A stretch of DNA of 64,000 nucleotides, taken from contig CAWEJK010000002.1 of NCBI GenBank assembly GCA_963809425.1, positions 193,254 to 257,253 on the forward strand, in the 5' to 3' direction. This stretch comes from Thermoanaerobaculia bacterium. Lineage in GTDB: Bacteria; Acidobacteriota; Thermoanaerobaculia; UBA5066. The position numbers and the translations under genes are program-made. Shown here piece by piece: positions 13,039 to 62,096 of the stretch; the first letter of the stretch is position 1, and each line of letters begins with the position of its first letter. The notes under the pieces were generated by a model that searched no databases, had not been told where the DNA came from, and saw only the letters and a list, made by a program, of their open reading frames with translations.

Positions 13039-14006
13039 GCGAGAGCGGCGCGTCCGCGTCCGGGTTCGATGCCGAAGACGTCGGCGTCCAGCTCGCGCGC
13101 GCCGGCGAGGTCGCCGACAGGCGCGAGGTCGGCCTCTGGCTCGTCGGAGGCGCCCTGCGCGACCTCCTCCTCGGGCGGCCGCTGCGTGACGTGGATCTGG
13201 CCGTCGAGGCGGCAGCGGCGAACGCGCTGGAGCTCGCGGCACGCCTCGGCGCCCTGCCCGGATGGGCGCTCGAAAAGACGCACGTTCGTTTCGGAACCGC
13301 GACCCTCCGGGCGCCGGGCGGACTTCGCGTGGACGTCGCGTCGACCAGGCGGGAGGAATATCCGGCGGCGGCCAGCTTGCCGGTCGTGACCGGCACGACG
13401 ACGATCGAGGAGGATCTCGGCCGCCGGGACTTCACGATTCATGCGATGGCGCGGCGGGTCGCACGCCGGGGCCTCGTCGGGCGCGTGCTCGATCCCTTCG
13501 GAGGACGCGAGGACCTCGCGGCGAAGAAGCTCCGCCTCCTCCATGCGAAATCCCTCGTCGACGACCCGACGCGCGCGTACCGCGCGGTGACGTACGCGGC
13601 ACGGCTCGGGTTCGCGTGGGACGAGGAGTTCCACAAAGCTCTGAAGGCGGCTCGGCGCGCACGAGCATTTCAGGCGCTTTCGGGGGACCGAATGAGGAGG
13701 GGAATAGAAGAGATTTTCTTAGAAAGTGAATGGGAGCGGGCGGTCCGCCTCGCGAGTGACCTCTCGTTGTTTGGCGACACCCTTCCGGGCTGGACGGGCC
13801 CCCTCTTACCTTCTAAGAAAATTCCGGCTGAGTTGATGGCTTCGGCACTCGTCGACGCATCACGTACCGTGGATGTGCGGCTGAAACCGGAAGAAATCTG
13901 GCGTCGGCTGCTCGAGCCGCTGCCGCCGCCCGAGCGCGCCGCCGTCGCGTCACGATTGAACTTCCCGAAGGCCCTGAGGCGTGCCGCGGAGGTGGAACCT
14001 CGATGA
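13035..14006 (+). CDS. tRNA nucleotidyltransferase / poly(A) polymerase family protein (CCA-adding-enzyme-like)
   Basis: GTG 13035 overlaps the dnaE stop. Contains LVGGALRDLLLGRPLRDVDLAV and RRDFTIHAM head-domain motifs. Carries an in-frame copy of the repeat element. Confidence 0.8.
   Translation: MSESGASASGFDAEDVGVQLARAGEVADRREVGLWLVGGALRDLLLGRPLRDVDLAVEAAAANALELAARLGALPGWALEKTHVRFGTATLRAPGGLRVDVASTRREEYPAAASLPVVTGTTTIEEDLGRRDFTIHAMARRVARRGLVGRVLDPFGGREDLAAKKLRLLHAKSLVDDPTRAYRAVTYAARLGFAWDEEFHKALKAARRARAFQALSGDRMRRGIEEIFLESEWERAVRLASDLSLFGDTLPGWTGPLLPSKKIPAELMASALVDASRTVDVRLKPEEIWRRLLEPLPPPERAAVASRLNFPKALRRAAEVEPR
13712..13824. repeat. Low-GC inverted-repeat element copy, in frame inside the CCA-like CDS
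   Basis: F arm GATTTTCTTAGAAAGTGAATGGG (13712-13734) and R arm CCCTCTTACCTTCTAAGAAAATTC (13801-13824). Near-identical to the arms at 16579 and 19220. Confidence 0.75.
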
Positions 14007-16558: not shown

Positions 16559-16750
16559 AGAAAAAGGATTCGGATTAGGATTTCTTAGAAGGTGAATAGG
16601 GCTGGGGTCACGCCTCCGCCCGAAGCACCGCCGGCCCGGAGTGCGACGGCGCCTTGGATCTTTACCCTTTCTAAGAAATCTCCTTTCCCTCTTCCTCTTC
16701 CTCTTCCTTTCCTCTTTCTCTTCTTCCTCTTCTCTGTCTTCTGTTTTCCA
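16559..16750. repeat. Low-GC inverted-repeat element, canonical intergenic copy plus a 70-nt CT tract
   Basis: F arm GATTTCTTAGAAGGTGAATAGGG (16579-16601). GC-rich core. R arm CCCTTTCTAAGAAATC (16665-16680). Polypyrimidine run at 16681-16750. Confidence 0.85.
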
Positions 16751-16773: not shown

Positions 16774-16801
16774 ATATCACTCTTACGTGATGTCATGATA
16801 T
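16774..16801. promoter_or_regulatory. Candidate operator for the ArsR-type regulator: ATATCAC-N6-GTGATGT and ATATCA...TGATAT inverted repeats
   Basis: ttaATATCACtcttacGTGATgtcaTGATATaaa sits directly upstream of the regulator start (GTG 16811). TATAAA lies 6 nt before the start codon. Confidence 0.4.
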
Positions 16802-16803
16802 AA

Positions 16804-19116
<2,313 letters not shown>

Positions 19117-19266
19117 GAGAACTACCGAGAGGAAGAGAAGAGGAAGATCTTCTTAGAAGGTAATAGGTCCGGGGAGCGCGGCCGTCGCATCGAGGCGCGG
19201 CCGCGACGCCTTGAACGGGCACCTTCTAAGAAATCTTTCTTCTCTTTTCTTTCTAAAGAAATCCCG
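19117..19266. repeat. Low-GC inverted-repeat element, canonical copy between convergent ahcY and lptFG
   Basis: GA-rich tract plus F arm GATCTTCTTAGAAGGTAATAGG (19146-19167). GC core. R arm CACCTTCTAAGAAATC (19220-19235) plus CT-rich tract. Extra half arm TTTCTAAAGAAATCC. Confidence 0.85.
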
Positions 19267-19275
19267 GTCCCTCTC

Positions 19276-21630
19276 TCAGGTTCTGACTCCAAGGAGACCC
19301 CACGCCGCCCCGAGACCGAAGAACACATTCGGCGCCCAGGCGGCGAGGAGGGGAGGAATGGCTCCCTGCTCTCCGAACGAGACGAGGAGCGCGGAAAGGA
19401 ACAGGTAGGTCAGGCCGAGGAACAGGGCGACGCCGACGCCCGCGACGGCGCCGCGCTTCCCGTACGCGAAGGCGAAGGGGAGTCCGACGAGCGTCAGGAG
19501 CAGAGCGGACGCCGCCGCTGCCGTCTTCTGGTGCAGCCCCGTCGCGAGCATTGCGGTGCCGGCACCCGCCCGGCGCCGCACCTCGATGAAGCGCGCGAGC
19601 TCGCGATAGGTCATCTGGCGCGGGTCGGCCTGGCCGGCGGCGAAACCGGCCGCGGCTTCGGGCGCTTCGATGAAGAACGGGCCGTCGCGCCGGATGGCGA
19701 GGGCATGGCCCTCGGTGAACGTGCGGATCCAGCCGTCTTCCGCGAAGAGGCCCTTCCCGGGGGCGAGGCGTGCCCGCGCCGCATCGAAACGGGAGACGAG
19801 CCTCCAGGTCGACGGATCGATCTGGAGGACCGACACGGCGGTGGCCATGCGGGAGGCCGGCTCGTAAGCGTCCGCGGAATAGAAACGCCCCGCGTCGCCG
19901 CGGAACCAGGCGCCACCGACGCTGCTGACCGGAGGCGCCTGTCCTTTCAACAGAAACCTGAGTCGATCGGCTTCCGAGGCGGCCGTGGGGACGACGCGCT
20001 CGGCGAAGACGAAGAGGAAGCCTCCGGCGATCACGGCGAGGACGAGGATCGGGGCCGTCGTCCGGTAGAGAGAGACGCCGTGCGCGAGAAGGGCGGTCGT
20101 CTCGGCTGAGCGCACGAGGCTCGCGATCGTGACGAGGGCCGCGACGAGGAAGGCGAACGGCACGATGGTCAGAATGATCGGGGAGAGCGACGCCTGGACG
20201 TAGCGGAGGATCATGGAAATCGGCGGCCGATGTCGAGCAATGTCGTCCGAAATCTCGAGGTAGTCGATCAGCACGTAGAGGATGGCGATCGAGGCCACGA
20301 CGAGGGCGAAGGTGCCGAGGAATCGCCTCGCGATGTATCGGTCGACGAGAAGGAGGCCCGGCAGGGAAGAGCGGCGGCCGGTCGTCGTGACCGGGCGTTC
20401 GGAGAGGGCAGGGGCGGCGCCCGGGCGGGACCCGCTGCCCTCGAAACGCGCGGCGAGAGGCGCCGATTTGAACAGGGCGAAGATGCTCTTGTCGCGCCGC
20501 ACGCGAGCGAGGGCATAGGCGCCGAAGGCGAGCAGCAGGAGATTCGGCAGCCACATGGCGAGGCCGGGCGACATGCGGCCCTCGATCGCGCGCGCCTCGC
20601 CGGTCGCGAGGAGGGCGTAGTAGAGGAGGACGATCCCGATGGACACCGTGAACCCGGCCGCGCGGCCTCCGCGCCTGTTGACGATTCCGAGGGGGAGCCC
20701 GATCAGACCGAAGACGAGGCAGGCGGCAGGTAACGCGAATTTCTTGTGGACCTCCGTCAGGGCGAGCCGGCGGTCCTCCGGACGGCGCGTCCGCGCGCCG
20801 GCGCGCTCGAGAAGCTCGCGGAGGGTCTGTTCCCGGATCTGCTTTTCGGAGACGCCCAGCGTCGGCCCGTTGTCCTGCAGCACCATGCGCTGCCGCGAGA
20901 ACGACGTGACGTCGTACCGTCGGCCGTCCTCGGCGATGTGGTGTCGCTCGGCGTCCTCGACGCGAAGCCACAAACGGCCCTGGTCCTCCTCGAGCTCGAG
21001 CCAGCCGCGGCGCGCGAGCGTCAGCTGCGCGCCTTCGGGATTGGACCGGTCCGAGATGATGAGTCCGGTGAGCTCACGGCGGTCCGGGGACGCCCCTTCG
21101 GCGTAGACGCGGAGGCCGGCGATCTCCGGGCTGAATACGCCGGGCTGGATTCTCTGGGCGAACGCAAAGCTCGAGAGGCGGAGCTTCATCGCGTAAAGGA
21201 GATGATTCGTGCGCGGTACGACGGCGAGCATCAGGACGAGCGTCACGCCCGCGGTCGCGGCGGCAAGGGCTCCGATCGGGCGGTAGAGCACGAGGAGATC
21301 GACGCCCGACGCCCGAAGGGCGGTCAGCTCGGAGTCGGCCGAGAGGCGGCCGATCCCGATGAGAAGCCCGAGAAGAAACGCGATGGGCAGCGTGAGGACC
21401 ACGATGTGCGGCAGAGACAGCGCGACGACGACGGCGGCTTCCGCAAACGGGCGTTCGCTCTGAACGAGGAGCTCGGAGAACTGCACGAGGCCGCGCACGG
21501 CCATGAACCCGGTATAGGCGAGAAAGCCGACGACCGTGGGCCCGGCCACCTCCTGAAAGACGTACCGGTTCAGGCGCGAGAGCACGCCGGATCGTAGCCG
21601 AACAGGCCGCTTTCCCAGGCCCAAACGCAA
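19276..21630 (-). CDS. Fused LptF-LptG lipopolysaccharide export permease (two YjgP/YjgQ modules in one ORF)
   Basis: 784 aa. The first module begins LNRYVFQEVAGP and the second LVDRYIARRFLGTF. Each has a 6-TM pattern with a periplasmic beta-jellyroll insert. Listed TTG start is uncertain. Confidence 0.8.
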   Translation of the reverse strand: MRLGLGKRPVRLRSGVLSRLNRYVFQEVAGPTVVGFLAYTGFMAVRGLVQFSELLVQSERPFAEAAVVVALSLPHIVVLTLPIAFLLGLLIGIGRLSADSELTALRASGVDLLVLYRPIGALAAATAGVTLVLMLAVVPRTNHLLYAMKLRLSSFAFAQRIQPGVFSPEIAGLRVYAEGASPDRRELTGLIISDRSNPEGAQLTLARRGWLELEEDQGRLWLRVEDAERHHIAEDGRRYDVTSFSRQRMVLQDNGPTLGVSEKQIREQTLRELLERAGARTRRPEDRRLALTEVHKKFALPAACLVFGLIGLPLGIVNRRGGRAAGFTVSIGIVLLYYALLATGEARAIEGRMSPGLAMWLPNLLLLAFGAYALARVRRDKSIFALFKSAPLAARFEGSGSRPGAAPALSERPVTTTGRRSSLPGLLLVDRYIARRFLGTFALVVASIAILYVLIDYLEISDDIARHRPPISMILRYVQASLSPIILTIVPFAFLVAALVTIASLVRSAETTALLAHGVSLYRTTAPILVLAVIAGGFLFVFAERVVPTAASEADRLRFLLKGQAPPVSSVGGAWFRGDAGRFYSADAYEPASRMATAVSVLQIDPSTWRLVSRFDAARARLAPGKGLFAEDGWIRTFTEGHALAIRRDGPFFIEAPEAAAGFAAGQADPRQMTYRELARFIEVRRRAGAGTAMLATGLHQKTAAAASALLLTLVGLPFAFAYGKRGAVAGVGVALFLGLTYLFLSALLVSFGEQGAIPPLLAAWAPNVFFGLGAAWGLLGVRT

Positions 21631-21636
21631 CGTCCG

Positions 21637-21650
21637 ATAATATTTATTAT
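21637..21650. promoter_or_regulatory. AT-only palindrome ATAATA-TT-TATTAT in the lptFG upstream region
   Basis: 14-bp perfect inverted repeat. On the coding strand, TATTAT lies 6 nt upstream of the listed TTG start. Confidence 0.3.
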
Positions 21651-21713
21651 GTTAAATTCTAGAGACCAGTCGCCTGAAAACATAAGGTGGGAGTCAAGGG
21701 AGGGTCCGCCGGG

Positions 21714-21791
21714 GATTTCTTGGAAAGGAAGAAAGAAAGAGGAAAGACTCCCTCTTGATTCTCTTTCTTTCTAAGAGGTCTTCTTCTTCGC
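21714..21791. repeat. Short core-less variant of the inverted-repeat element, overlapping the parB stop
   Basis: GATTTCTTGGAAAGGAAGAAAGAAAGAGGAAAGA / TCTCTTTCTTTCTAAGAGGTCTTCTTC. The parB TAG stop (21771-21773) lies in the R arm. Confidence 0.6.
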
Positions 21792-24083: not shown

Positions 24084-24240
24084 TTTCTTAGAATGGTTTA
24101 TAGAAGATTTTCGCGGCCCGAAATGAGCTCGGGACTCGAGTCCGAGACACCCATCCGAACGACATTCGAAGAAATCCCCTCTTCGGTCTTCTCCTCGATC
24201 TTTTCTTCGGTCTTTTTCTCGGTCCTGCCCTGTCTTCTTC
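24084..24240. repeat. Low-GC inverted-repeat element copy forming the 3-prime end of the miaB ORF
   Basis: F arm TTTCTTAGAATGGTTTATAGAAG. Core has a perfect GGACTCGAGTCC palindrome. R arm CATTCGAAGAAATCCCC (24163-24179). CT-rich tract runs to about 24240. Confidence 0.75.
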
Positions 24241-25583: not shown

Positions 25584-25697
25584 GGAGAAAGAGAAGAATC
25601 GGGGGCGAGGCCGCGAGTCGCGCCGGAACGCCGCCCAGCGACGAGACGCGCAACACCTTCTAAGAAATCCTCGGCCTCATATCTTCTATCTTGGCTC
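25584..25697. repeat. Inverted-repeat element copy with degenerate left arm, between miaB start and upstream gene stop
   Basis: GGAGAAAGAGAAGAATCGGGGG ... GC core ... CACCTTCTAAGAAATCC (25654-25670) ... ATCTTCTATC. Confidence 0.6.
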
Positions 25698-36248: not shown

Positions 36249-38005
36249 GGCGCCGCCGGCGCGAGGTCGACGATCGTGAGCGAGGGCCGGCCCGTGAAAG
36301 AGTCGATCGCGAGGTTCGCGGCTACGTCCAGGCGTCCGGCGCGCGCGGCCGGCGGGATGTCGGCGAGCGTCCAGCCCACGGCTTCGAGGCGCCGCCCGCT
36401 GGACGCGAGCGAAACGCGGAGCCCACGTTCGCCGACGGCGCGGCCGCGGCCGTCCCACTCGAGGCCGCGGAACCCGAGAAGCGGCTTCGGATTCTCCTGG
36501 CCGTGCGGCTCGAAACGCTCGAGGGCGCGCGCGAGCGGGTCGTCCGCCTCGGGGGCCTCCACTTCGGTGTCGACGAACAGCTCCTCGGTCCACTCGTCAT
36601 CGTCGCGCGCCGCCGCGAAGGTGTCCCGCAGGTCGTCGCGAAAGGCCTCGAAGGACGCGGCCGGCAGCGTGAGGCCGAGCGCGGCGGCATGACCGCCGAA
36701 CTCTTTCGTATAGCGCCGCGCCACGGGCGCGAGGCGCTCGAAGAGCGGCGTCTTCCCGTAGCTGCGGCCGCTGCCCGACACGACGTCTCCTTCGCGGGCC
36801 AGGAGCAGCACGGGCCTGGCCAGCTCCTTCGCGACACGGGACGCGGCGATTCCCAGAACGCCGCGGTGCCAGCCGTCCGCGGCGTCCCCCGCCTCGACCA
36901 CGATGGCGTCGCGCGCCGCGTCGAAACCGCCGGCGAGCCGCGCGAGCACGAGGTCGACGACGCCCTGCTGGACGGAGCGGCGCTCGTCGTTCGCCGCCTC
37001 GATCTCCCCGGCGAGAATCTCCGCCCGGGCGGCATCGGCCGTCGTGAGCAGCTCGAAGGCGCGCGCCGCGTGGTCGAGCCGCCCCATGGCGTTCAGCCGG
37101 GGCGCGATGCGAAACGCGACTTCACGCGTGGAGGGCGCGCGCCCGGCGGGAACGCCCGCACGCCGGAGGAGAGCCGCGAGACCGGGAGCCCGCGGGTCCG
37201 CGAGTCCCTCGAGGCCCCAGGACACGAGGACGCGGTTCTCGCCCGTGAGGGGGACCATGTCGGCGACGGTCGAGATTGCCGCGATCTTCGCGAGAGAGGC
37301 GAGCCAGCGGCGGCGGCCCGCTGCGTCCACGCCCACGCGCTCCCCCGAGTGGATGAAGAGAGCCTCGGCCAGCTTCCACGCGAGGCCGGCGCCGCACAGC
37401 TCCTTGAAGGGATACCGGCAGCCCGGAAGCTTCGGATCCACGAGCACCGCGCCGTTCGGCAGCGCGGCCGGTGGCAGGTGATGATCCGTCACGATGACGT
37501 AGACGCCGCGGCTCGTGGCCTCGGCCACGGTCTCGACCGCGGTGATCCCGCAGTCGACGGTCACGATGCCCTCCGGCTCGTGCTCTTCGAGCGCGCGCCG
37601 GAGCGTCGACGCCCGAAGGCCGTAGCCGTCCTGGAGCCGGTGCGGAATGAAGGGCCGCGCGTCGGCTCCCAGCTTCCGGAGGACCGTCGTGAGAATCGCG
37701 AGCGCGCCGACGCCGTCGCAGTCGTAGTCCCCGAAAACGACGATGCGCCCGCCGCGCCGGGCGGTGGCCGCGAGGAGCTCCACGGCGGCGGGCAACCCTG
37801 CCATCGCGAAGGGATCGTGCAGCGCGTCGGGGGCGGGCGCGAGATGCGTGCGCGCCGCGTCGACGTCTTCGAAGCCGCGCGCCGCGAGGACGCGGGCCGC
37901 GGGCGCGGGCAGGCCGAGCTCCCGGATGAGGCGGTCCGCCGCATCCAAACGCTGGGGCCGAAGGTGGCGCCGCACGAGGCGCGGCGCGCGCGCCCGGGCG
38001 CTCAC
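36245..38005 (-). CDS. recJ: Single-stranded-DNA-specific exonuclease RecJ
   Basis: 586 aa. DHH motifs ([20 protein letters not shown]) and a DHHA1 domain. Confidence 0.92.
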
Positions 38006-38951
38006 GCGTTCTCCCAGGCCCCCATCGCGCGGAACTTCGCGTACCGCGCCTCGAGCAGCTTTTCGAGCGGAAGGTGCGCGAGGCGCTCGAGCCGCCCCTC
38101 GATCGCGCGCCCGACGGTGTCGATGACCGCGACCGGGTCGGCGTGGGCGCCGCCCGAAGGCTCGCGCAGCACCTCGTCGATGACGCCCAGGGCCTTGCAG
38201 TCCGCCGCCGTCAGCCGCATCGCTTCGGCGGCCTCCTTGGCGCGGGCCTGGTCTTTCCAGAGAATCGCGGCGCAGCCTTCGGGCGAGATCACGGAATAGA
38301 CCGAGTGCTCGAGCATGAGGACGGCGTCGCCGATTCCGATCCCGAGCGCTCCGCCGGAGCCGCCTTCGCCGATGACGGTCGCCACGATCGGGGTGCGAAG
38401 GCCCGACATCTCGAGGAGATTCCGGGCGATCGCCTCCGCGACGCCCCGCTCCTCGCTTTCGAGGCCGGGAAACGCGCCCGGCGTATCGATGAACGAGAGG
38501 ACGGGCTTGCCGAACTTCTCGGCGAGCTTCATCACCCGGAGCGCCTTGCGGTAGCCCTCGGGGCGCGGCATCCCGAAGTTGCGCCGGATCTTCTCCCGCG
38601 TGTCGCGGCCCTTCTGGTGTCCGATCACGGCCACGGGGCGCGCCCCCAGAAGCCGAAGCCCGCCACGATCGCCGGATCGTCCGCGAAGGCCCTGTCGCCG
38701 TGCCATTCCACGAAATCCCGGATGAGGATGCGCACGTAGTCGAGCGTGAACGGCCGGTTCGGGTGCCGCGCCACGAGGGTCTTCTGCCAGGGCGTGAGGT
38801 TTTCGTAGATCTCGCGGGACAGCTTCTGGAGCTTCTCCTCGAGCTTCTCGACCTCGCGCTCGCGGGCGGGGCTCTCCGCGAAGCTCTTCAGCTCCTCGAG
38901 CCGTCGCTTCACGCGCTGGATCGGCTCGTCGAACTGAGCCTCGTTCGCCAT
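38002..38951 (-). CDS. accA: Acetyl-CoA carboxylase carboxyltransferase alpha subunit, frame broken by an apparent 1-nt deletion
   Basis: N-terminal part ([14 protein letters not shown]...[13 protein letters not shown]) is in the frame of listed ORF 38625..39275. The rest ([33 protein letters not shown]...) is in the frame of 38002..39729. Junction at 38656-38669. Length 950 nt = 3n+2. Confidence 0.85.
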
Positions 38952-39015: not shown

Positions 39016-39056
39016 GAAGAGGAAGAGAAAGAGATTCTTAGAATGGAAGAGATCGG
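39016..39056. repeat. Solo F arm of the inverted-repeat element, containing the methyltransferase start codon
   Basis: GAAGAGGAAGAGAAAGAGATTCTTAGAATGGAAGAGATCGG. Compare 24084 and 44861. Confidence 0.65.
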
Positions 39057-44240: not shown

Positions 44241-45070
44241 GGCTGCTTCCCCTTCCGCGCCGGCGCGTCGATCCCGAGCCGCGCGAGCACCGCGAGCAGA
44301 TCCTCCCACGCGTCCTTTTTCTGGGCGGGCTGGCGGAGGAGGTACGACGGGTGAAGAGTCGGCATCACGGGGATGCCTCGATAGCTCCCCCATTTGCCGC
44401 GGAGGCGCGTGATGCCCTCTTCGGTTTCCAGCAGGAAGTGCGCGGCGAATTTGCCGAGCGCGACGAGCACCTCCGGCTTCACGAGATCGATCTGCCTTTC
44501 GAGGTAGCCGCGGCAGGCGGCGATCTCGTCGGGCTCCGGATTCCGGTTCTCGGGCGGACGGCACTTCAGGACGTTCGCGATGTAGACGGACGAGCGCGGC
44601 AGCCCCATGCCGTCCTCGATCATCCGCGTGAGAAGCTGGCCGGCGCGCCCTACGAACGGGACGCCCTGCGCGTCCTCGTCGGCCCCCGGAGCCTCGCCGA
44701 TGAACATGATCCTGGCGCTGGACGAGCCGTCCGCGAACACCGTCTGCTTGCGGGTTTTGCACAGCCGGCATGTGACGCAGGAAGAGACTTCTTTTGCTAA
44801 AGACTGCAGCTCCAGGGCCGAAGCGCGTCGAGCGGAAGGCGAAGCGGCGGGAGACGGCGCATTTTCTTCGAATGGTGAAGAGAGATCGGGAAGCGCCGGC
44901 GCCGCAGGGGACGCGCCTGCGGGCTTGCCCGCCGCCCTATTAACCTTCAAAGAAATCTTCTCTTTCTCTTCGAACCTTGCATCAAGGTAAAGCTCCGCCA
45001 CGCCGAGGTCGCGATAGTAGGCGAGGGTTTCCCGAAGCGCGTCGGAGCCGGGGGGCCGCGCGGGGGTCAC
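44237..45070 (-). CDS. Uracil-DNA glycosylase, family 4, with N-terminal extension containing a repeat element
   Basis: CRLCKTRKQTVFADGS...IMFIGEAPGADEDAQGVPFVGRAGQLL...HPSYLLR. Confidence 0.88.
   Translation of the reverse strand: MTPARPPGSDALRETLAYYRDLGVAELYLDARFEEKEKISLKVNRAAGKPAGASPAAPALPDLSSPFEENAPSPAASPSARRASALELQSLAKEVSSCVTCRLCKTRKQTVFADGSSSARIMFIGEAPGADEDAQGVPFVGRAGQLLTRMIEDGMGLPRSSVYIANVLKCRPPENRNPEPDEIAACRGYLERQIDLVKPEVLVALGKFAAHFLLETEEGITRLRGKWGSYRGIPVMPTLHPSYLLRQPAQKKDAWEDLLAVLARLGIDAPARKGKQP
44861..44972. repeat. Low-GC inverted-repeat element copy, in frame inside the udg N-terminal region
   Basis: F arm ATTTTCTTCGAATGGTGAAGAGAGATCGGG (44861-44890). GC core. R arm CCCTATTAACCTTCAAAGAAATCTTCTCTTTCTCTTCG (44935-44972). 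Confidence 0.8.
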
Positions 45071-45965: not shown

Positions 45966-46842
45966 TCATTCGACGTTCTGGACCTGTTCCTTGAATGCTT
46001 CGAGATCGGATTTCAGGTCGAGGACGATCCGTGTGGCGCCCGTTTCCCGGACCTTGGATCCCGAGGTATTCACCTCGCGGTGAATCTCCTGCACGAGATG
46101 GTCGAGGCGGCGGCCGACGGGCCCACCAGCGGCGAGAAGGCGCCGCAGCTCGACGAGGTGCGTCTTGAGGCGGTCGATCTCTTCGGTGATGTCGGCGCGA
46201 TCGGCGAGGAGGGCGACCTCCTGGACGAGCCGGGCCTCGTCGAGCGCCACCCCCGCCGCCAGCTTCGCGATGCGCTCGCGAAGGGCGACGGCTATGCGCT
46301 CGGAGATGCCCGTCCGAGCCACGTCGAGCGACGCCACCCCTTTGTCGATTCGCTCCAGGATTTCTTTGAAGGTGAGAGAGAGAGCGGCCCCCTCGCGCGC
46401 CCGTGCGGCGTCGAAGTCCTGGAGCGCCTGTTCGACGAGCGAGACAAGAGACTCCTCGAATGTGGTATCGGGCGCGGCGCCGGCGTCGTCCGTCGCACGC
46501 ACGACCCCCGGCAGCGCGAGAAGGTCCCTTGCGGAGAGATCCGCCGGTAATCCCCTTTTCGAAGAATCCTCTCTCCATTCCCTCGCGTAATTTTCCGCCG
46601 CTTCCATGTCGATGCGGGCCGTTCCCGAGGCGCCCGCGGGCTCGCGTGGTCCGGATCAGGACGTCGACGTGCCCGCGCGCCACGACCTTCCCCACGGCCC
46701 GGCGGACGGCCGGCTCCGAGGCGGCGTATTCGTCGCGCAGCTTGATGGCCACGTCGAGGAATCGGTGGTTCACGCCGCGGATGACGACCGAGACGTCCGT
46801 CCCGTCGGGAAGTGTCGCCGCCGCGCGGCCGAATCCGGTCAT
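45966..46842 (-). CDS. YicC-family stress-induced protein, frame broken between 46610 and 46655
   Basis: N-terminus MTGFGRAAATLPDGTDVSVVIRGVNHRFLDVAIKL is in the frame of listed ORF 45952..48933. The C-terminal DUF1732 part (ITEEIDRLKTHL...EIHREVNTSGSK) is in listed ORF 45966..46607. Length 877 nt = 3n+1. Confidence 0.8.
46358..46582. repeat. Element-like F and R arms inside yicC (wide spacing)
   Basis: GGATTTCTTTGAAGGTGAGAGAGAGAGCGG (46358-46387) and CCCCTTTTCGAAGAATCCTCTCTCCATTCCC (46552-46582). Confidence 0.45.
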
Positions 46843-56890: not shown

Positions 56891-56928
56891 GGAGAAGAGG
56901 GGATTTCTTAGAAGGTGAAGAGAGGCGA
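56891..56928. repeat. Solo F arm of the inverted-repeat element, filling the trpS-scpA spacer
   Basis: GGAGAAGAGGGGATTTCTTAGAAGGTGAAGAGAGGCGA. Confidence 0.7.
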
Positions 56929-58628: not shown

Positions 58629-60800
58629 TCAGTCTCCGGCCGGAAGATCGGCGGCGCGGAGAAGGAGGGGCGTGCGGAAGGGAGCGTCCGCGTTCCCCGC
58701 GAGGAGCCGCGAGGCTTCGTCGCGGGCGCGCTTCATCCAGGCGACGTCGCGGACGAGATCGCCCACGCGGAAGAGCGGCACCCCGCTCTGGCGCGTGCCG
58801 AGCGCGTCGCCGGGGCCCCGGCGCTTGAGGTCTTCCTCGGCCACCACGAATCCGTCGTCCGTCTTCTCGAGAACGGCAAGCCGCTCGCGCGCTTCGGGCG
58901 ACGCCTTCGTGCCGAACAGAAGCACGCAGCGCGAGGTCCGTTTCCCGCGCCCGACGCGTCCCCTGAGCTGATGGAGCTGGGCGAGGCCGAAGCGCTCGGC
59001 ATTCTCGATCAGCATGTAGGAGGCGTTCGGCACGTCGACGCCGACCTCGATGACGGTCGTCGCCGCGAGGACGTCGAGCCTGCCGGCCGCGAACTCCGCC
59101 ATCGTCCGCTCGCGCTCCTCGGGGGGAATACGGCCATGCACGACGCCGACACGTCTTCCGGGCAGGGCCCGGCGGACCTCCTCCACGTGCTTTTCGACCG
59201 CGCGCGCCTCGATCTTGTCCGACTCCTCTATGAGGGGGACGACGACGTAAGCCTGGCCCCCGGCCCGGATCTCGGCCTCGATCTCCCGGAACGCGCCGCC
59301 ACGCTCGGCCTCGGGGAGCACGCGCGTCGCGACGGGCGTCCTCCCCGGCGGTTTTTCGTCGAGCGTCGAGACGTCGAGGTCCCCGTAGAGCGTGAGCGCA
59401 AGAGAGCGCGGAATCGGCGTCGCGGACATCACGAGGAGGTGCGGCTTCTGGCCGGCCGTGTCGGCCCCGTCGGCTCTCACGGCCTTCGCCGAGAGCGCCG
59501 TGCGCTGGGCGACCCCGAAGCGGTGCTGCTCGTCTATGACGATGAGCCCGAGCCGCAGGAACTCCACGGGCTCCTCCAGGAGCGCGTGCGTTCCGACCAG
59601 CAGGTTGACGCGGCCGCCCGCGAGCTGGTCGAGGAGCGCGGCGCGGGCCTTCCCTTTGACGCGGCCCGTGAGTAGCGCGGGCACGAGCCCGGACTTCGCG
59701 AGCAGGCGGAAGATCGTCGCCGCGTGCTGCTCGGCGAGGATCTCCGTCGGCGCCATGAGGGCGGTCTGGTACCCGCATGCGGCGGCAAGGACGGCCGAGA
59801 GCACCGCGACGATCGTCTTGCCGCTCCCGACGTCGCCCTGGAGGAGGCGCCGCATGGGCGTGCCGCGCCGGAAGTCCTCGCCGATCTCGCGGATCACCCG
59901 CTTCTGCGCTCCGGTCAGCGCGAACGGGAGGAGAGCCTTGAGCCGCGCGCGGATGGCGTCGTCGGCGGCGAGGAGAGGAGCTGGATCGGCGGCGCGCGCG
60001 CGGCGCCGCCGTTGAAGGCCGACCTGGAACTCGAGGAACTCCTCGTAAACGAGTCGATGGAGATGGGGCGAGGTCCGCGAAGTCCAGGGCTCCGCGTCGG
60101 CCGTGCCGCCCGCACTGCCCGGGAAATGCGCCTCTCGCAGGGATTCGGAAAGAGACGGCAGCTTCGGACCCTCGCCTTTCCGGTCGTGGATGCGTTCCGG
60201 GAGACGGTCTGCAAAGTTTCTTAGAAGGTGATTGACGACTCGCCTCCGCATCCGCGGTGTGAGTCCGGGAAGCTTGCGGTAGATCGGCACGACCCGGCCG
60301 ACGGAGAGGGGATCCGTTCCGTCGAGCGAGCCGGCGCCGCCGCCCGCCCCTCCTCCCTCTTTCTCTTCACCTTCCAAGAATTCTTCTATCTGCGGGTTCT
60401 CCATGACGAGCCCGCGCCGATAGCGCGCGGCCTGTGTCGCCATTCCGTAGACCCAGAAGATCTTCTTCGGGACCATCCACCGCTGGAGGTATGGCTGGTT
60501 GAAGAAGACGAGGCGGAGAGAGCCCGAGCCGTCGTCGAGGATCGCCTCGAAGATCGTGAAGCCGCGGCGCCGCGTGCGAATGAGGCGCGCGGACAGGACC
60601 TCCCCTTTCACGGTGGTCGCCGGCCCCTCGGGCACGAGAGCCGAGATCGGCGCGATGCGCGTGCGGTCCTCGTAGCGGAACGGGAGGTGGAGGAGGAGAT
60701 CGAGCGCCGTCTCGACTCCGGCCTCGGCCAGCTCCTTCGCGCGCGCGGGGCCGACGCCCGGCAGCGTGGCAAGCGACGGGAGCGGCGGCGGCGGGAGGAT
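58629..60800 (-). CDS. recG: ATP-dependent DNA helicase RecG (start codon unresolved)
   Basis: LQGDVGSGKT, VIDEQHRFG and QLHQLRGRVGRG motifs. The conserved N-terminus LPGVGPARAKELAEAGVETALDLLLHLPFRYEDRT is encoded in frame upstream of the listed GTG 60635, but with no ATG/GTG/TTG. ATC 60800 or CTG is a candidate start. Confidence 0.9.
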   Translation of the reverse strand: MLPPPPLPSLATLPGVGPARAKELAEAGVETALDLLLHLPFRYEDRTRIAPISALVPEGPATTVKGEVLSARLIRTRRRGFTIFEAILDDGSGSLRLVFFNQPYLQRWMVPKKIFWVYGMATQAARYRRGLVMENPQIEEFLEGEEKEGGGAGGGAGSLDGTDPLSVGRVVPIYRKLPGLTPRMRRRVVNHLLRNFADRLPERIHDRKGEGPKLPSLSESLREAHFPGSAGGTADAEPWTSRTSPHLHRLVYEEFLEFQVGLQRRRRARAADPAPLLAADDAIRARLKALLPFALTGAQKRVIREIGEDFRRGTPMRRLLQGDVGSGKTIVAVLSAVLAAACGYQTALMAPTEILAEQHAATIFRLLAKSGLVPALLTGRVKGKARAALLDQLAGGRVNLLVGTHALLEEPVEFLRLGLIVIDEQHRFGVAQRTALSAKAVRADGADTAGQKPHLLVMSATPIPRSLALTLYGDLDVSTLDEKPPGRTPVATRVLPEAERGGAFREIEAEIRAGGQAYVVVPLIEESDKIEARAVEKHVEEVRRALPGRRVGVVHGRIPPEERERTMAEFAAGRLDVLAATTVIEVGVDVPNASYMLIENAERFGLAQLHQLRGRVGRGKRTSRCVLLFGTKASPEARERLAVLEKTDDGFVVAEEDLKRRGPGDALGTRQSGVPLFRVGDLVRDVAWMKRARDEASRLLAGNADAPFRTPLLLRAADLPAGD
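60216..60390. repeat. Element-like F and R arms inside recG (wedge/linker region)
   Basis: GTTTCTTAGAAGGTGATTG (60216-60234) and CCCTCTTTCTCTTCACCTTCCAAGAATTCTTCTATC (60355-60390). Confidence 0.5.
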
Positions 60801-61689: not shown

Positions 61690-62096
61690 GTGACTCGGGC
61701 CGGACGATAAGCCGGATTCTGTAACCGGTCGGCTCGCGCCTTCCGGCCGGCGGTCATTCCTCCAGGCCCGGCCTTTCGGACGGGCTCGAGCGACCGACCC
61801 GGTGACGTCGGCCGTGAAGCCGCGAGGGCGGGCGCCCCTTCCATCACCCTATTTGGTCTTGCTCCGCGTGGGGTTTCGCCTGCCGGTCCCGTTGCCGGAA
61901 CCGCGGTGCGCTCTTACCGCACCTTTTCACCCTTACCTGCGCCTCGCGGCGCGTCGGCGGTATGTTTTCTGTGCCACTTTCCTTCGGGTTACCCCGACCG
62001 GAATTTCTCCGGCACGCTGCCCGCGGGAGTCCGGACTTTCCTCCCCTCCTTCCGCCGAAGCGTCGAGAGCGGCGACCGCCTGTCCGGCCCGAGTCG
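61690..62096 (-). ncRNA. rnpB: RNase P RNA, bacterial type A
   Basis: Reverse strand contains GGAGGGGAGGAAAGTCCGGAC, GGCACAGAAAACATACCGCC, GGTAAGGGTGAAAAGGTGCGGTAAGAGCGCACCGC and ACAGAATCCGGCTTATCG. P1 pairing is ACTCGGGCCGGAC with GTCCGGCCCGAGT. Ends are approximate to within +/-5 nt. Confidence 0.93.

Follow-up and report, generated by a model that had tools for sequence, protein, structure and literature searches.

Short repeats dispersed through bacterial genomes have been described in several forms. REP sequences (repetitive extragenic palindromes), with the related BIME (bacterial interspersed mosaic element) and REPIN (REP doublet forming a hairpin) arrangements and the RAYT transposases (REP-associated tyrosine transposases), are abundant short extragenic repeats at the 3' ends of genes, often arranged as inverted, hairpin-forming doublets; each REP is an imperfect GC-rich palindrome, and the spacers of REPINs are homologous and covary. 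The attC sites of integrons consist of conserved inverted arms around a centre that varies in length and sequence, about 60–140 nt in total, while HIP1 (highly iterated palindrome 1) of cyanobacteria is a perfect 8-bp palindrome without paired architecture or flanking tracts, and its function is unknown. Uptake sequences occur both in open reading frames (ORFs) and between genes, where copies are found in inverted pairs; in H. influenzae, ORFs cover 86% of the genome and hold 65% of the uptake signal sequences (USS), and the inverted pairs of USS prompted a proposal, still contested, that they are terminators (PMC2346458). Here we analyzed a stretch of 64,000 nucleotides from a Thermoanaerobaculia bacterium (contig CAWEJK010000002.1, positions 193,254 to 257,253; the whole stretch is referred to as the window), in which a hairpin-forming element lies between the convergent genes ahcY and lptFG. 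This hairpin is one copy of an undescribed, class-wide dispersed repeat of Thermoanaerobaculia-type Acidobacteriota, and what is conserved in it is a short unit rather than the hairpin.

The stop codon of ahcY occupies 19114–19116 and that of lptFG (TCA on the plus strand) 19276–19278, and the element makes up all 159 nt from one stop to the other (19117–19275), just as an earlier note, made from the sequence alone, had it filling the convergent gap. The left gene, ahcY (17773–19116, plus strand), encodes adenosylhomocysteinase (Pfam AdoHcyase on the orthologues), and the right one (19276–21585, minus strand) is a fused lptF/lptG permease gene (Pfam LptF_LptG, E 1.5e-142). On the left is an outer purine (GA) tract (19127–19148, plus), which belongs to the left unit and is followed by the unit itself, CTTCTTAGAAGGTA with its inner ATAGG (19149–19167, plus; two mismatches to the consensus TTTCTTAGAAGGTG). 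Then comes a GC-rich core (19168–19219), which carries a hairpin of its own and is unique but for the orthologous element in the relative L119. The right unit is a perfect 14-mer (19220–19233, minus; CACCTTCTAAGAAA as read on the plus strand), and the outer pyrimidine (CT) tract next to it (19234–19253, minus) is its purine tract on the minus strand. An extra degenerate arm-like stretch, TTTCTTTCTAAAGAAATC (19246–19263), has the counterpart TTTTTCTAAAACAATC in L119. The GA tract with the forward arm (19127–19167) and the reverse arm with the CT tract (19220–19253) are present as the earlier note had quoted them.

The long hairpin that it had described is also real. The predicted RNA fold of 19117–19266 has −70.7 kcal/mol on the plus strand, compared with −47.0 ± 3.9 for 200 dinucleotide shuffles, none of which was as good (z −6.15), and −66.2 kcal/mol on the minus strand (z −5.44). 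The minimum free energy structure is a hairpin with 52 pairs; the left arm matches the reverse complement of the right arm in 26 of 29 aligned columns, and the stem of about 35–40 bp encloses a 57-nt core. As for the claimed stops in several frames, they are present in five of the six frames of 19117–19275, but the ahcY frame is open across the entire gap and reads ...IFLEG...APSKKS.... Read-through of the TAG of ahcY would append 53 residues (ENYREEEKRKIFLEGN...APSKKSFFSFLSKEIPVPL), and intragenic copies are translated in that frame too. An Rfam scan gave no family for the element at the gathering threshold or at E≤1, with only a sub-threshold match to a plant miRNA hairpin at 19130–19249 (23.9 bits vs 70).

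The unit itself is a purine tract followed by GATTTCTTAGAAGGTGAAGAGGG, a conserved DNA signal of 14–25 bases. In a logo of 177 units, conservation is limited to about −20 to +25 around the 14-mer, in the order purine-rich tract (−20 to −1), A-TTTCTTAGAAGGTG-AAgAGGG and background. The unit is AT-rich, with just a 9-nt inner palindrome (TTCTnAGAA). With up to one mismatch allowed, 15 matches to TTCTTAGAAGG are present in the window, where 0.12 would be expected, and a profile hidden Markov model (HMM) trained solely on units from other genomes found 13 units in the 64 kb, both arms at ahcY/lptFG included (left, 19134–19171 plus, E 0.006; right, 19243–19220 minus, E 1.6e-4). The earlier note was right that the ahcY/lptFG element is another copy of a repeat. 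In unbiased sequence there is about one unit per 5 kb, and the window is a purely housekeeping region. Moreover, a scan of one genome per species for the exact 16-mer GATTTCTTAGAAGGTG gave at least 118 stretches. Among the matches listed, about three quarters (more than 70 loci) are on high-GC contigs of Thermoanaerobaculia/Acidobacteriota metagenome-assembled genomes, from more than 20 assemblies and often with several matches per 8 kb, and those in low-GC genomes are single, chance matches. On viral contigs, all 101 of 101 matches fall in contigs below 50% GC and are likewise due to chance. Our literature search found neither TTCTTAGAAGG nor its complement in any bacterial paper, and nothing on repeats of Thermoanaerobaculia.

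The units have a strict paired geometry. At distances of 60–200 nt we counted 67 inward-facing pairs, against 8 outward-facing and 8 direct ones, and four of the 8 outward pairs are the inner palindrome matching itself. The spacing has its mode at 62–92 nt from start to start, no pair is closer than 60 nt, and the cores of inward pairs measure at least about 48 nt. Thirty of the 67 pairs are inside genes, 29 lie between genes and 8 overlap a gene end. The cores are unrelated to each other: none of 88 comparisons within genomes detected homology (the best local score equals the between-genome background), and neither did any of about 2100 comparisons between genomes, orthologous sites excepted. 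The same is true of the ahcY/lptFG core and the metK-side core at 16595–16664, so that the earlier note was right to call the arms conserved and the cores non-homologous, and right that this is unlike the decay of one miniature inverted-repeat transposable element (MITE). A metagenome scan with a 22-mer from the young core of the element at 16581 was uninformative on this point, with two chance matches in unrelated coding DNA and no recovery of paralogues or of the same locus. The earlier note's description of the cores as self-complementary fits the present copy (z −2.3, measured on 19163–19219), which belongs to a self-complementary minority, but not the family, whose mean z against shuffles is −0.44 (−0.54 for intergenic and −0.25 for intragenic cores; −0.1 for the 16581 core). 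Cores as conserved hairpins were therefore rejected for the family, and cores as captured gene fragments were ruled out as well, for intergenic cores lack codon periodicity (0.22, compared with 0.43 in coding controls and 0.25 in ordinary spacers).

The arms give the same picture. Within one pair the 14-mers match at 0.811, and between different pairs at 0.818; the corresponding values are 0.32 and 0.35 for the outer flanks and 0.38 and 0.37 for the inner flanks. Because arms from one pair resemble each other no more than arms combined at random do, the pairing is not the conserved thing, and this absence of covariation led us to reject a fold-back or template-switch origin as well as selection for the hairpin. 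At orthologous sites arm identity is 84% and core identity 62%, which shows that the unit is better conserved than the sequence that it brackets. The family shares with REPs and REPINs the abundance of short repeats in inverted, hairpin-forming doublets, but about 50% of its units are genic, the unit is AT-rich, the spacers are unrelated and there is no compensatory change; a RAYT gene was not found in the 64-kb window. It resembles attC in having inverted conserved arms around a variable centre, but it has no GTTRRRY/RYYYAAC box and is dispersed in core genes, not collected in cassette arrays by an integrase.

A large proportion of the units, 90 of 178, lie within genes, a placement checked by Pfam and PDB alignments for recG, PolyA_pol, yicC and a lysA-like gene. 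Density is 3.4 units per kb in convergent gaps, 1.2 per kb in tandem gaps, lowest among the gaps in divergent ones, and 0.15 per kb in coding sequence. With respect to the gene strand, 40 coding units run with it and 50 against it (21 vs 22 for coding singles). The former mostly use the frame xxT TTC TTA GAA GGT (FLEG; 28 of 40) and the latter xCA CCT TCT AAG AAA (PSKK; 35 of 50), and these are the only open frames of the unit. An idea that the unit is a Shine-Dalgarno or start signal or a promoter (AGGTGA, one TAGAAT variant) was dropped, as units are orientation-neutral in genes and present in convergent gaps.

Many of these coding units occupy the place of native residues. In the PolyA_pol/CCA-like gene of the window, an intragenic pair at 13715–13820 encodes EEIFLESEW ... 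PLLPSKK; EEIFLESEW aligns without gaps to LEKILEEKN of the T. maritima protein (3H37), the left arm taking the place of the native LEKILEE with length unchanged. In recG, where a pair spans 60217–60381, one unit (NHLLRNF) aligns gap-free to DQALDLL of E. coli RecG and also gap-free to T. maritima RecG (PDB chains), and the SPSKKSF of a LysA-like protein at locus L049 does the same with its best PDB match, BtrK (2j66_A). True in-frame insertions exist as well: the other recG unit, EFLEGEEKEGGGAGGGAG (60330–60381, minus), adds about 15 acidic/glycine residues between the wedge and helicase domains that are absent from E. coli and T. maritima RecG, and low-complexity in-frame inserts are at the matching place of one housekeeping gene in L026 and L045.

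Coding units are also long retained. The PolyA_pol pair sits at identical codons, with gene length unchanged, in all five relatives whose loci cover the gene (five of the seven fetched; L119 and L125 fall short of it), and in a codon alignment of the window with these five, ATT TTC TTA GAA is retained in 5–6 of 6. A unit in rsmD, in a different frame (ARFSSKGEE), is retained in 6 of 6. The compared species are 8–21% diverged in protein. The codons involved are rare: TTA accounts for 0.3% of Leu, ATT for 9% of Ile, TCT for 4% of Ser and AAA for 14% of Lys codons, and of the six TTA codons that the genes of the window contain together, the PolyA_pol pair holds two. These data show that the unit is kept at the DNA level, regardless of the direction of transcription and, in genes, despite codon bias. 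Such long retention against codon bias requires host-level selection or a continuing drive. In this respect the unit is like HIP1, an in-place motif of coding and non-coding DNA that is maintained at orthologous positions, but here the units are paired and have flanking tracts.

On this basis we favour, tentatively and with somewhat less than even confidence, the reading that the unit is a DNA-level recognition signal maintained by selection or by a conversion- or uptake-like drive, and that the hairpin is a by-product. The functional entity would be the short oriented signal, purine tract then GATTTCTTAGAAGGTGAAGAGGG, presumably a recognition site for a sequence-specific DNA-binding or DNA-processing activity, and a pair would be two inward-facing units around at least about 48 nt of arbitrary sequence. 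The long hairpin would then be the automatic result of two near-consensus inverted units with their GA/CT flanks. Maintenance could come from selection on the host or from a drive of the conversion type, a possible model being biased DNA uptake plus recombination, as for the DNA uptake sequences (DUS) and USS of Neisseriaceae and Pasteurellaceae. The only likely local effect would be secondary: either convergent transcript would gain a stem of about 35–40 bp and a C/U-rich tail, which may hinder read-through or form a substrate of the RNase III type. Since essential genes keep the signal too, the repeat is neither a simple terminator nor an ordinary mobile element.

The likeness to DUS/USS is considerable. 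Both are short oriented motifs with weaker flanks, strongly over-represented and conserved taxon-wide; both use either strand and permissive frames in ORFs as well as intergenic sites (here with an intergenic excess), persist at orthologous positions rather than decay, and often form inverted pairs between genes, with hairpins at gene ends (PMC2346458). The differences are that pairs here are strictly inward with cores of at least about 48 nt instead of short loops, that there is no U-tract, that half of the pairs are intragenic, that the GA flanks are variable and microsatellite-like, and that whole elements arrive as insertions with novel cores. We know of no uptake signal in Acidobacteriota. 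The bolder proposal, which we regard as unlikely, is that the unit is a genuine self-recognition or uptake-type signal of Thermoanaerobaculia and the first DUS/USS-like system outside Proteobacteria; a protein would read two inward sites at least 60 nt apart, and a conversion-type drive would write the signal into essential genes and seed the intergenic elements.

Several points weigh against the recognition-signal reading and its uptake-type drive. The window, whose genes are all housekeeping ones, yielded neither a binding protein nor a competence gene. An uptake-type drive does not account for pairs that face strictly inward and have cores of at least about 48 nt, for this geometry being found inside genes (30 pairs) or for the arrival of about 160–190 bp of new, unique GC-rich DNA at sites that had been empty. 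The two sites of a pair show no helical phasing (periods 9.5–11.5), which gives no support to rigid protein-mediated looping. In addition, the loci of the scan were chosen for the 16-mer, so their densities are biased and only the window and the seven syntenic loci are unbiased, and genes outside the window were called with our own GC3-based caller.

The history of the ahcY/lptFG copy bears on the other explanations. Seven syntenic loci (L119–L125), gathered via orthologues of the ArsR-methyltransferase, share the gene order dnaE-PolyA_pol-hyp-rsmD-metK-arsR/MT-ahcY><lptFG-parB-parA with the window. At the junction of ahcY and lptFG, the window has its 159-nt element and L119 an orthologous one of 165 nt, with a core 85% identical over 40 nt and the extra arm shared. 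L120 and L121 have overlapping stops (4 nt, CTAG), and L125 has a 3-nt gap. L123 has 21 nt with a GA tract only, L122 has 44 nt with GA and CT tracts only, and L124 contains a 181-nt element whose core is different and longer. A neighbour-joining tree gave ((L120,(L121,(L119,window))),(L125,L122)),(L123,L124). The copy is thus shown to be a dispensable insertion of about 160 bp in the common ancestor of the window and L119, dispensable because L120, L121 and L125 do without it; judging from these sequences, the simplest history would combine this gain with independent gains, or incomplete losses, in other lineages. As neither stop codon has moved, the TA that they shared must either have been duplicated or have come with the insertion. 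None of the seven relatives has the metK element (L121 carries a lone unit at that site), and it is therefore younger than the split from L119.

The earlier note had likened the hairpin to a bidirectional terminator or insulator. In this view, selection would act on a long stem with C/U-rich 3' tails, or on a hairpin that is cut by RNase III or stabilizes 3' ends, like REP or Correia elements. The element does exactly occupy a convergent gap, its hairpin is very stable on both strands, unit density ranks convergent over tandem over divergent gaps, and the inward orientation sets a pyrimidine tract 3' of the stem whichever the direction of transcription. L119 and L124 also have the ahcY/lptFG site filled, independently or by retention, while L122 and L123 have remnants there, and RNase III cuts the hairpins formed by the terminal inverted repeats of Correia elements (PMC10969869). 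However, the canonical GC stem with a U-tract is missing, the stem being followed by UAAAGAAAUCCC on the plus and GGUAGUUCUCC on the minus strand. A scan for consensus terminators found none at 19117–19275 or at the other elements, and in the 15 kb from 12 to 27 kb the terminator-like matches number 10, against a shuffle mean of 10.0. Relatives do without any spacer (the 4-nt overlap in L120 and L121, the 3-nt gap in L125), 30 of 67 pairs are intragenic, the arms show no compensatory covariation, and most cores are not hairpins, the whole 16581 element having a z of only −1.5. Moreover, single units in tandem gaps favour the orientation that gives purine-rich RNA, not C/U-rich RNA (15 vs 6), and this also weakened the idea that the CT tract is a rut site for Rho. 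The terminator explanation is therefore not borne out as the primary one and we consider it quite improbable, although the hairpin possibly insulates the convergent transcripts in an incidental way.

A MITE-like origin is a serious rival to the recognition signal, though we hold it somewhat doubtful. The units would be the terminal inverted repeats of a non-autonomous transposon (MITE-like or ‘pack-MITE’-like), recognized by a transposase supplied in trans, and any bracketed segment above a minimal synapsis length would be mobilized, so that cores need not be related; the ahcY/lptFG copy would have been inserted at the TA of overlapping stops. Terminal inverted repeats on a non-coding element of 50–500 bp are found here, and transposon ends are arranged in just this way, facing inward only and subject to a sharp lower limit of size. 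Presence and absence alternate among close relatives at ahcY/lptFG and metK/arsR. At the CTAG overlap both stops survive the insertion, implying a TA duplication, as CTAG has become TAG...(T/C)(T/C)A with both stops kept. The target-site duplication is a putative one, since the junctions are much diverged and none is visible at metK. Units are enriched between genes (3.4/kb in convergent and 1.2/kb in tandem gaps vs 0.15/kb in coding sequence), and some intragenic copies are true in-frame insertions (RecG with about 15 aa; the low-complexity inserts of L026 and L045), as are the palindromic elements of Rickettsia (RPEs) within genes (PMC10969869).

What speaks against it is that, orthologous sites excepted, no related cores exist within (0 of 88) or between genomes, that intergenic cores are not gene fragments, that many coding units stand in for native residues and leave the length unchanged, and that coding orthologues are held long despite codon bias, beyond what selection on an element explains. 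No transposase is found in the window or between long-spaced pairs; an autonomous element there was considered and rejected, since the genes are ordinary (rhodanese/MBL; a Xer-like integrase beside a glyoxalase protein; and one unknown). Compared with described elements, the copies resemble Correia/NEMIS (Neisseria miniature insertion sequences) and other bacterial MITEs in a size of about 100–190 bp, terminal inverted repeats, intergenic preference, presence/absence and a possible TA duplication, and also resemble Correia elements in the long hairpin of these repeats in transcripts, an RNase III substrate in Neisseria (PMC10969869). But MITE copies share internal sequence and always add length, whereas here none is shared and numerous coding units sit in place; long-term constraint acts on the orthologous copies, and no cognate transposase was seen in the window or between long-spaced pairs. 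The likeness to RPEs is that palindromic repeats are read in frame in protein-coding genes and tolerated by housekeeping proteins. RPEs, however, are full-length homologous insertions of about 150 bp that form families, while here the copies have just arms of about 25 nt in common, and native coding sequence lies between the units of several intragenic pairs.

The same geometry could also come from invertons with one global invertase, the units being inverted recombination sites and the cores flipped cargo, intragenic inversions included. The conserved sites are inverted, enclose unrelated inserts, keep a minimum distance that would allow synapsis and are present both in and between genes, all of which would agree with this, and intragenic invertons are known in gut Bacteroidales (10.1101/2023.03.11.532203). 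Yet all 8 orthologous comparisons found core and flanks collinear, pairs occur about once per 10 kb and in housekeeping genes that inversion would destroy (recG, PolyA_pol), no invertase is nearby and the cores have no promoter-like content. We regard invertons as a most improbable explanation.

The remaining copies in the window are of several types. The sister element after metK (16559–16750) has units at 16581–16594 (plus) and 16665–16678 (minus), followed by a 70-nt G-free CT tract. Such tracts flank elements at window 16681–16750 (70 nt) and as (CT)14 at L119 5531–5560; the long ones resemble slippage-prone microsatellites and differ in length among copies. GA tracts adjoin stop codons. 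A pair at 24084–24174 is at the 3' end of a miaB-like gene, whose last ~45 codons are element sequence; the C-terminal ~45 residues past the TRAM domain (EKKTEEKIEEKTEEGISSN..., 24098–24235, minus) are encoded by the GA tract and arm, and the element has thus redefined the 3' end of this gene. Another element (25584–25674, minus) has an intact unit at 25654–25667 (minus) and a degenerate partner consisting of a CT tract only, and a pair of variant units, TTTCTTCGAATGGTG and AACCTTCAAAGAAA (44863–44955), is downstream of gmk and a probable rpoZ. Single units are found at 56904–56925 (plus), in a 42-nt spacer between a trpS-like gene and scpA; at 46361–46378 (plus), a variant antisense to yicC; and at 39034–39051 (plus), a variant in a divergent gap that overlaps the start codon (ATG) of a gene for a Trm112-methyltransferase. 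At the 3' end of parB is a degenerate element (TTTCTTGGAAAGG ... CTTTCTTTCTAAGAGG, 21716–21778), within whose arm-like TTCTAAG the parB stop codon falls; the lptFG/parB gap holds full pairs in L119, L122, L124 and L125.

Between the lptFG start and the parB end we also observed a dif-like site, GTCCGATAATATTTATTATGTTAAAT (21632–21657), with XerC/XerD-type arms around a 6-nt centre. It is kept in all seven relatives, and sites for the resolution of chromosome dimers do not usually adjoin parAB. Just upstream of the gene for an ArsR-HTH/SAM-methyltransferase fusion (HTH, helix-turn-helix; SAM, S-adenosylmethionine), at about 16783–16806, lies an ArsR-type operator palindrome (ATATCAC..ACGTGAT..ATGATAT), which is conserved upstream of arsR-methyltransferase in L119–L122 too. 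The gene stands between metK and ahcY in every relative, and this suggests that it may form an autoregulated unit linked to the SAM cycle. The accA gene (38002–38951, minus) is split into two ORFs that overlap in different frames (Pfam ACCA 3–100 and 107–310), owing to a frameshift or an assembly error. In L124 alone, the call for dnaE is split into two genes 327 nt apart (909–1236), possibly an interruption or an in-frame stop. The sole Rfam match at gathering level in the window is a class A bacterial RNase P RNA (61692–62091, minus; 266.9 bits), and a search for tRNA and tmRNA genes found none.

Genome-wide signals that are kept in genes despite codon bias are few, namely Chi, KOPS (FtsK orienting polar sequences), DUS/USS and HIP1, and each of them exposed a part of the DNA-handling machinery. 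For the annotation of these genomes, the units extend ORFs spuriously and place in-frame inserts in housekeeping genes, account for many long hairpins liable to be flagged as terminators, and are a sharp taxonomic marker for binning. An abundant uncultured class of soil and sediment carries such a signal, with a paired geometry that is predicted by none of the known models, and finding its reader, whether a competence receptor, a recombinase, a transposase or a nucleoid protein, would open a new mechanism in Acidobacteriota.

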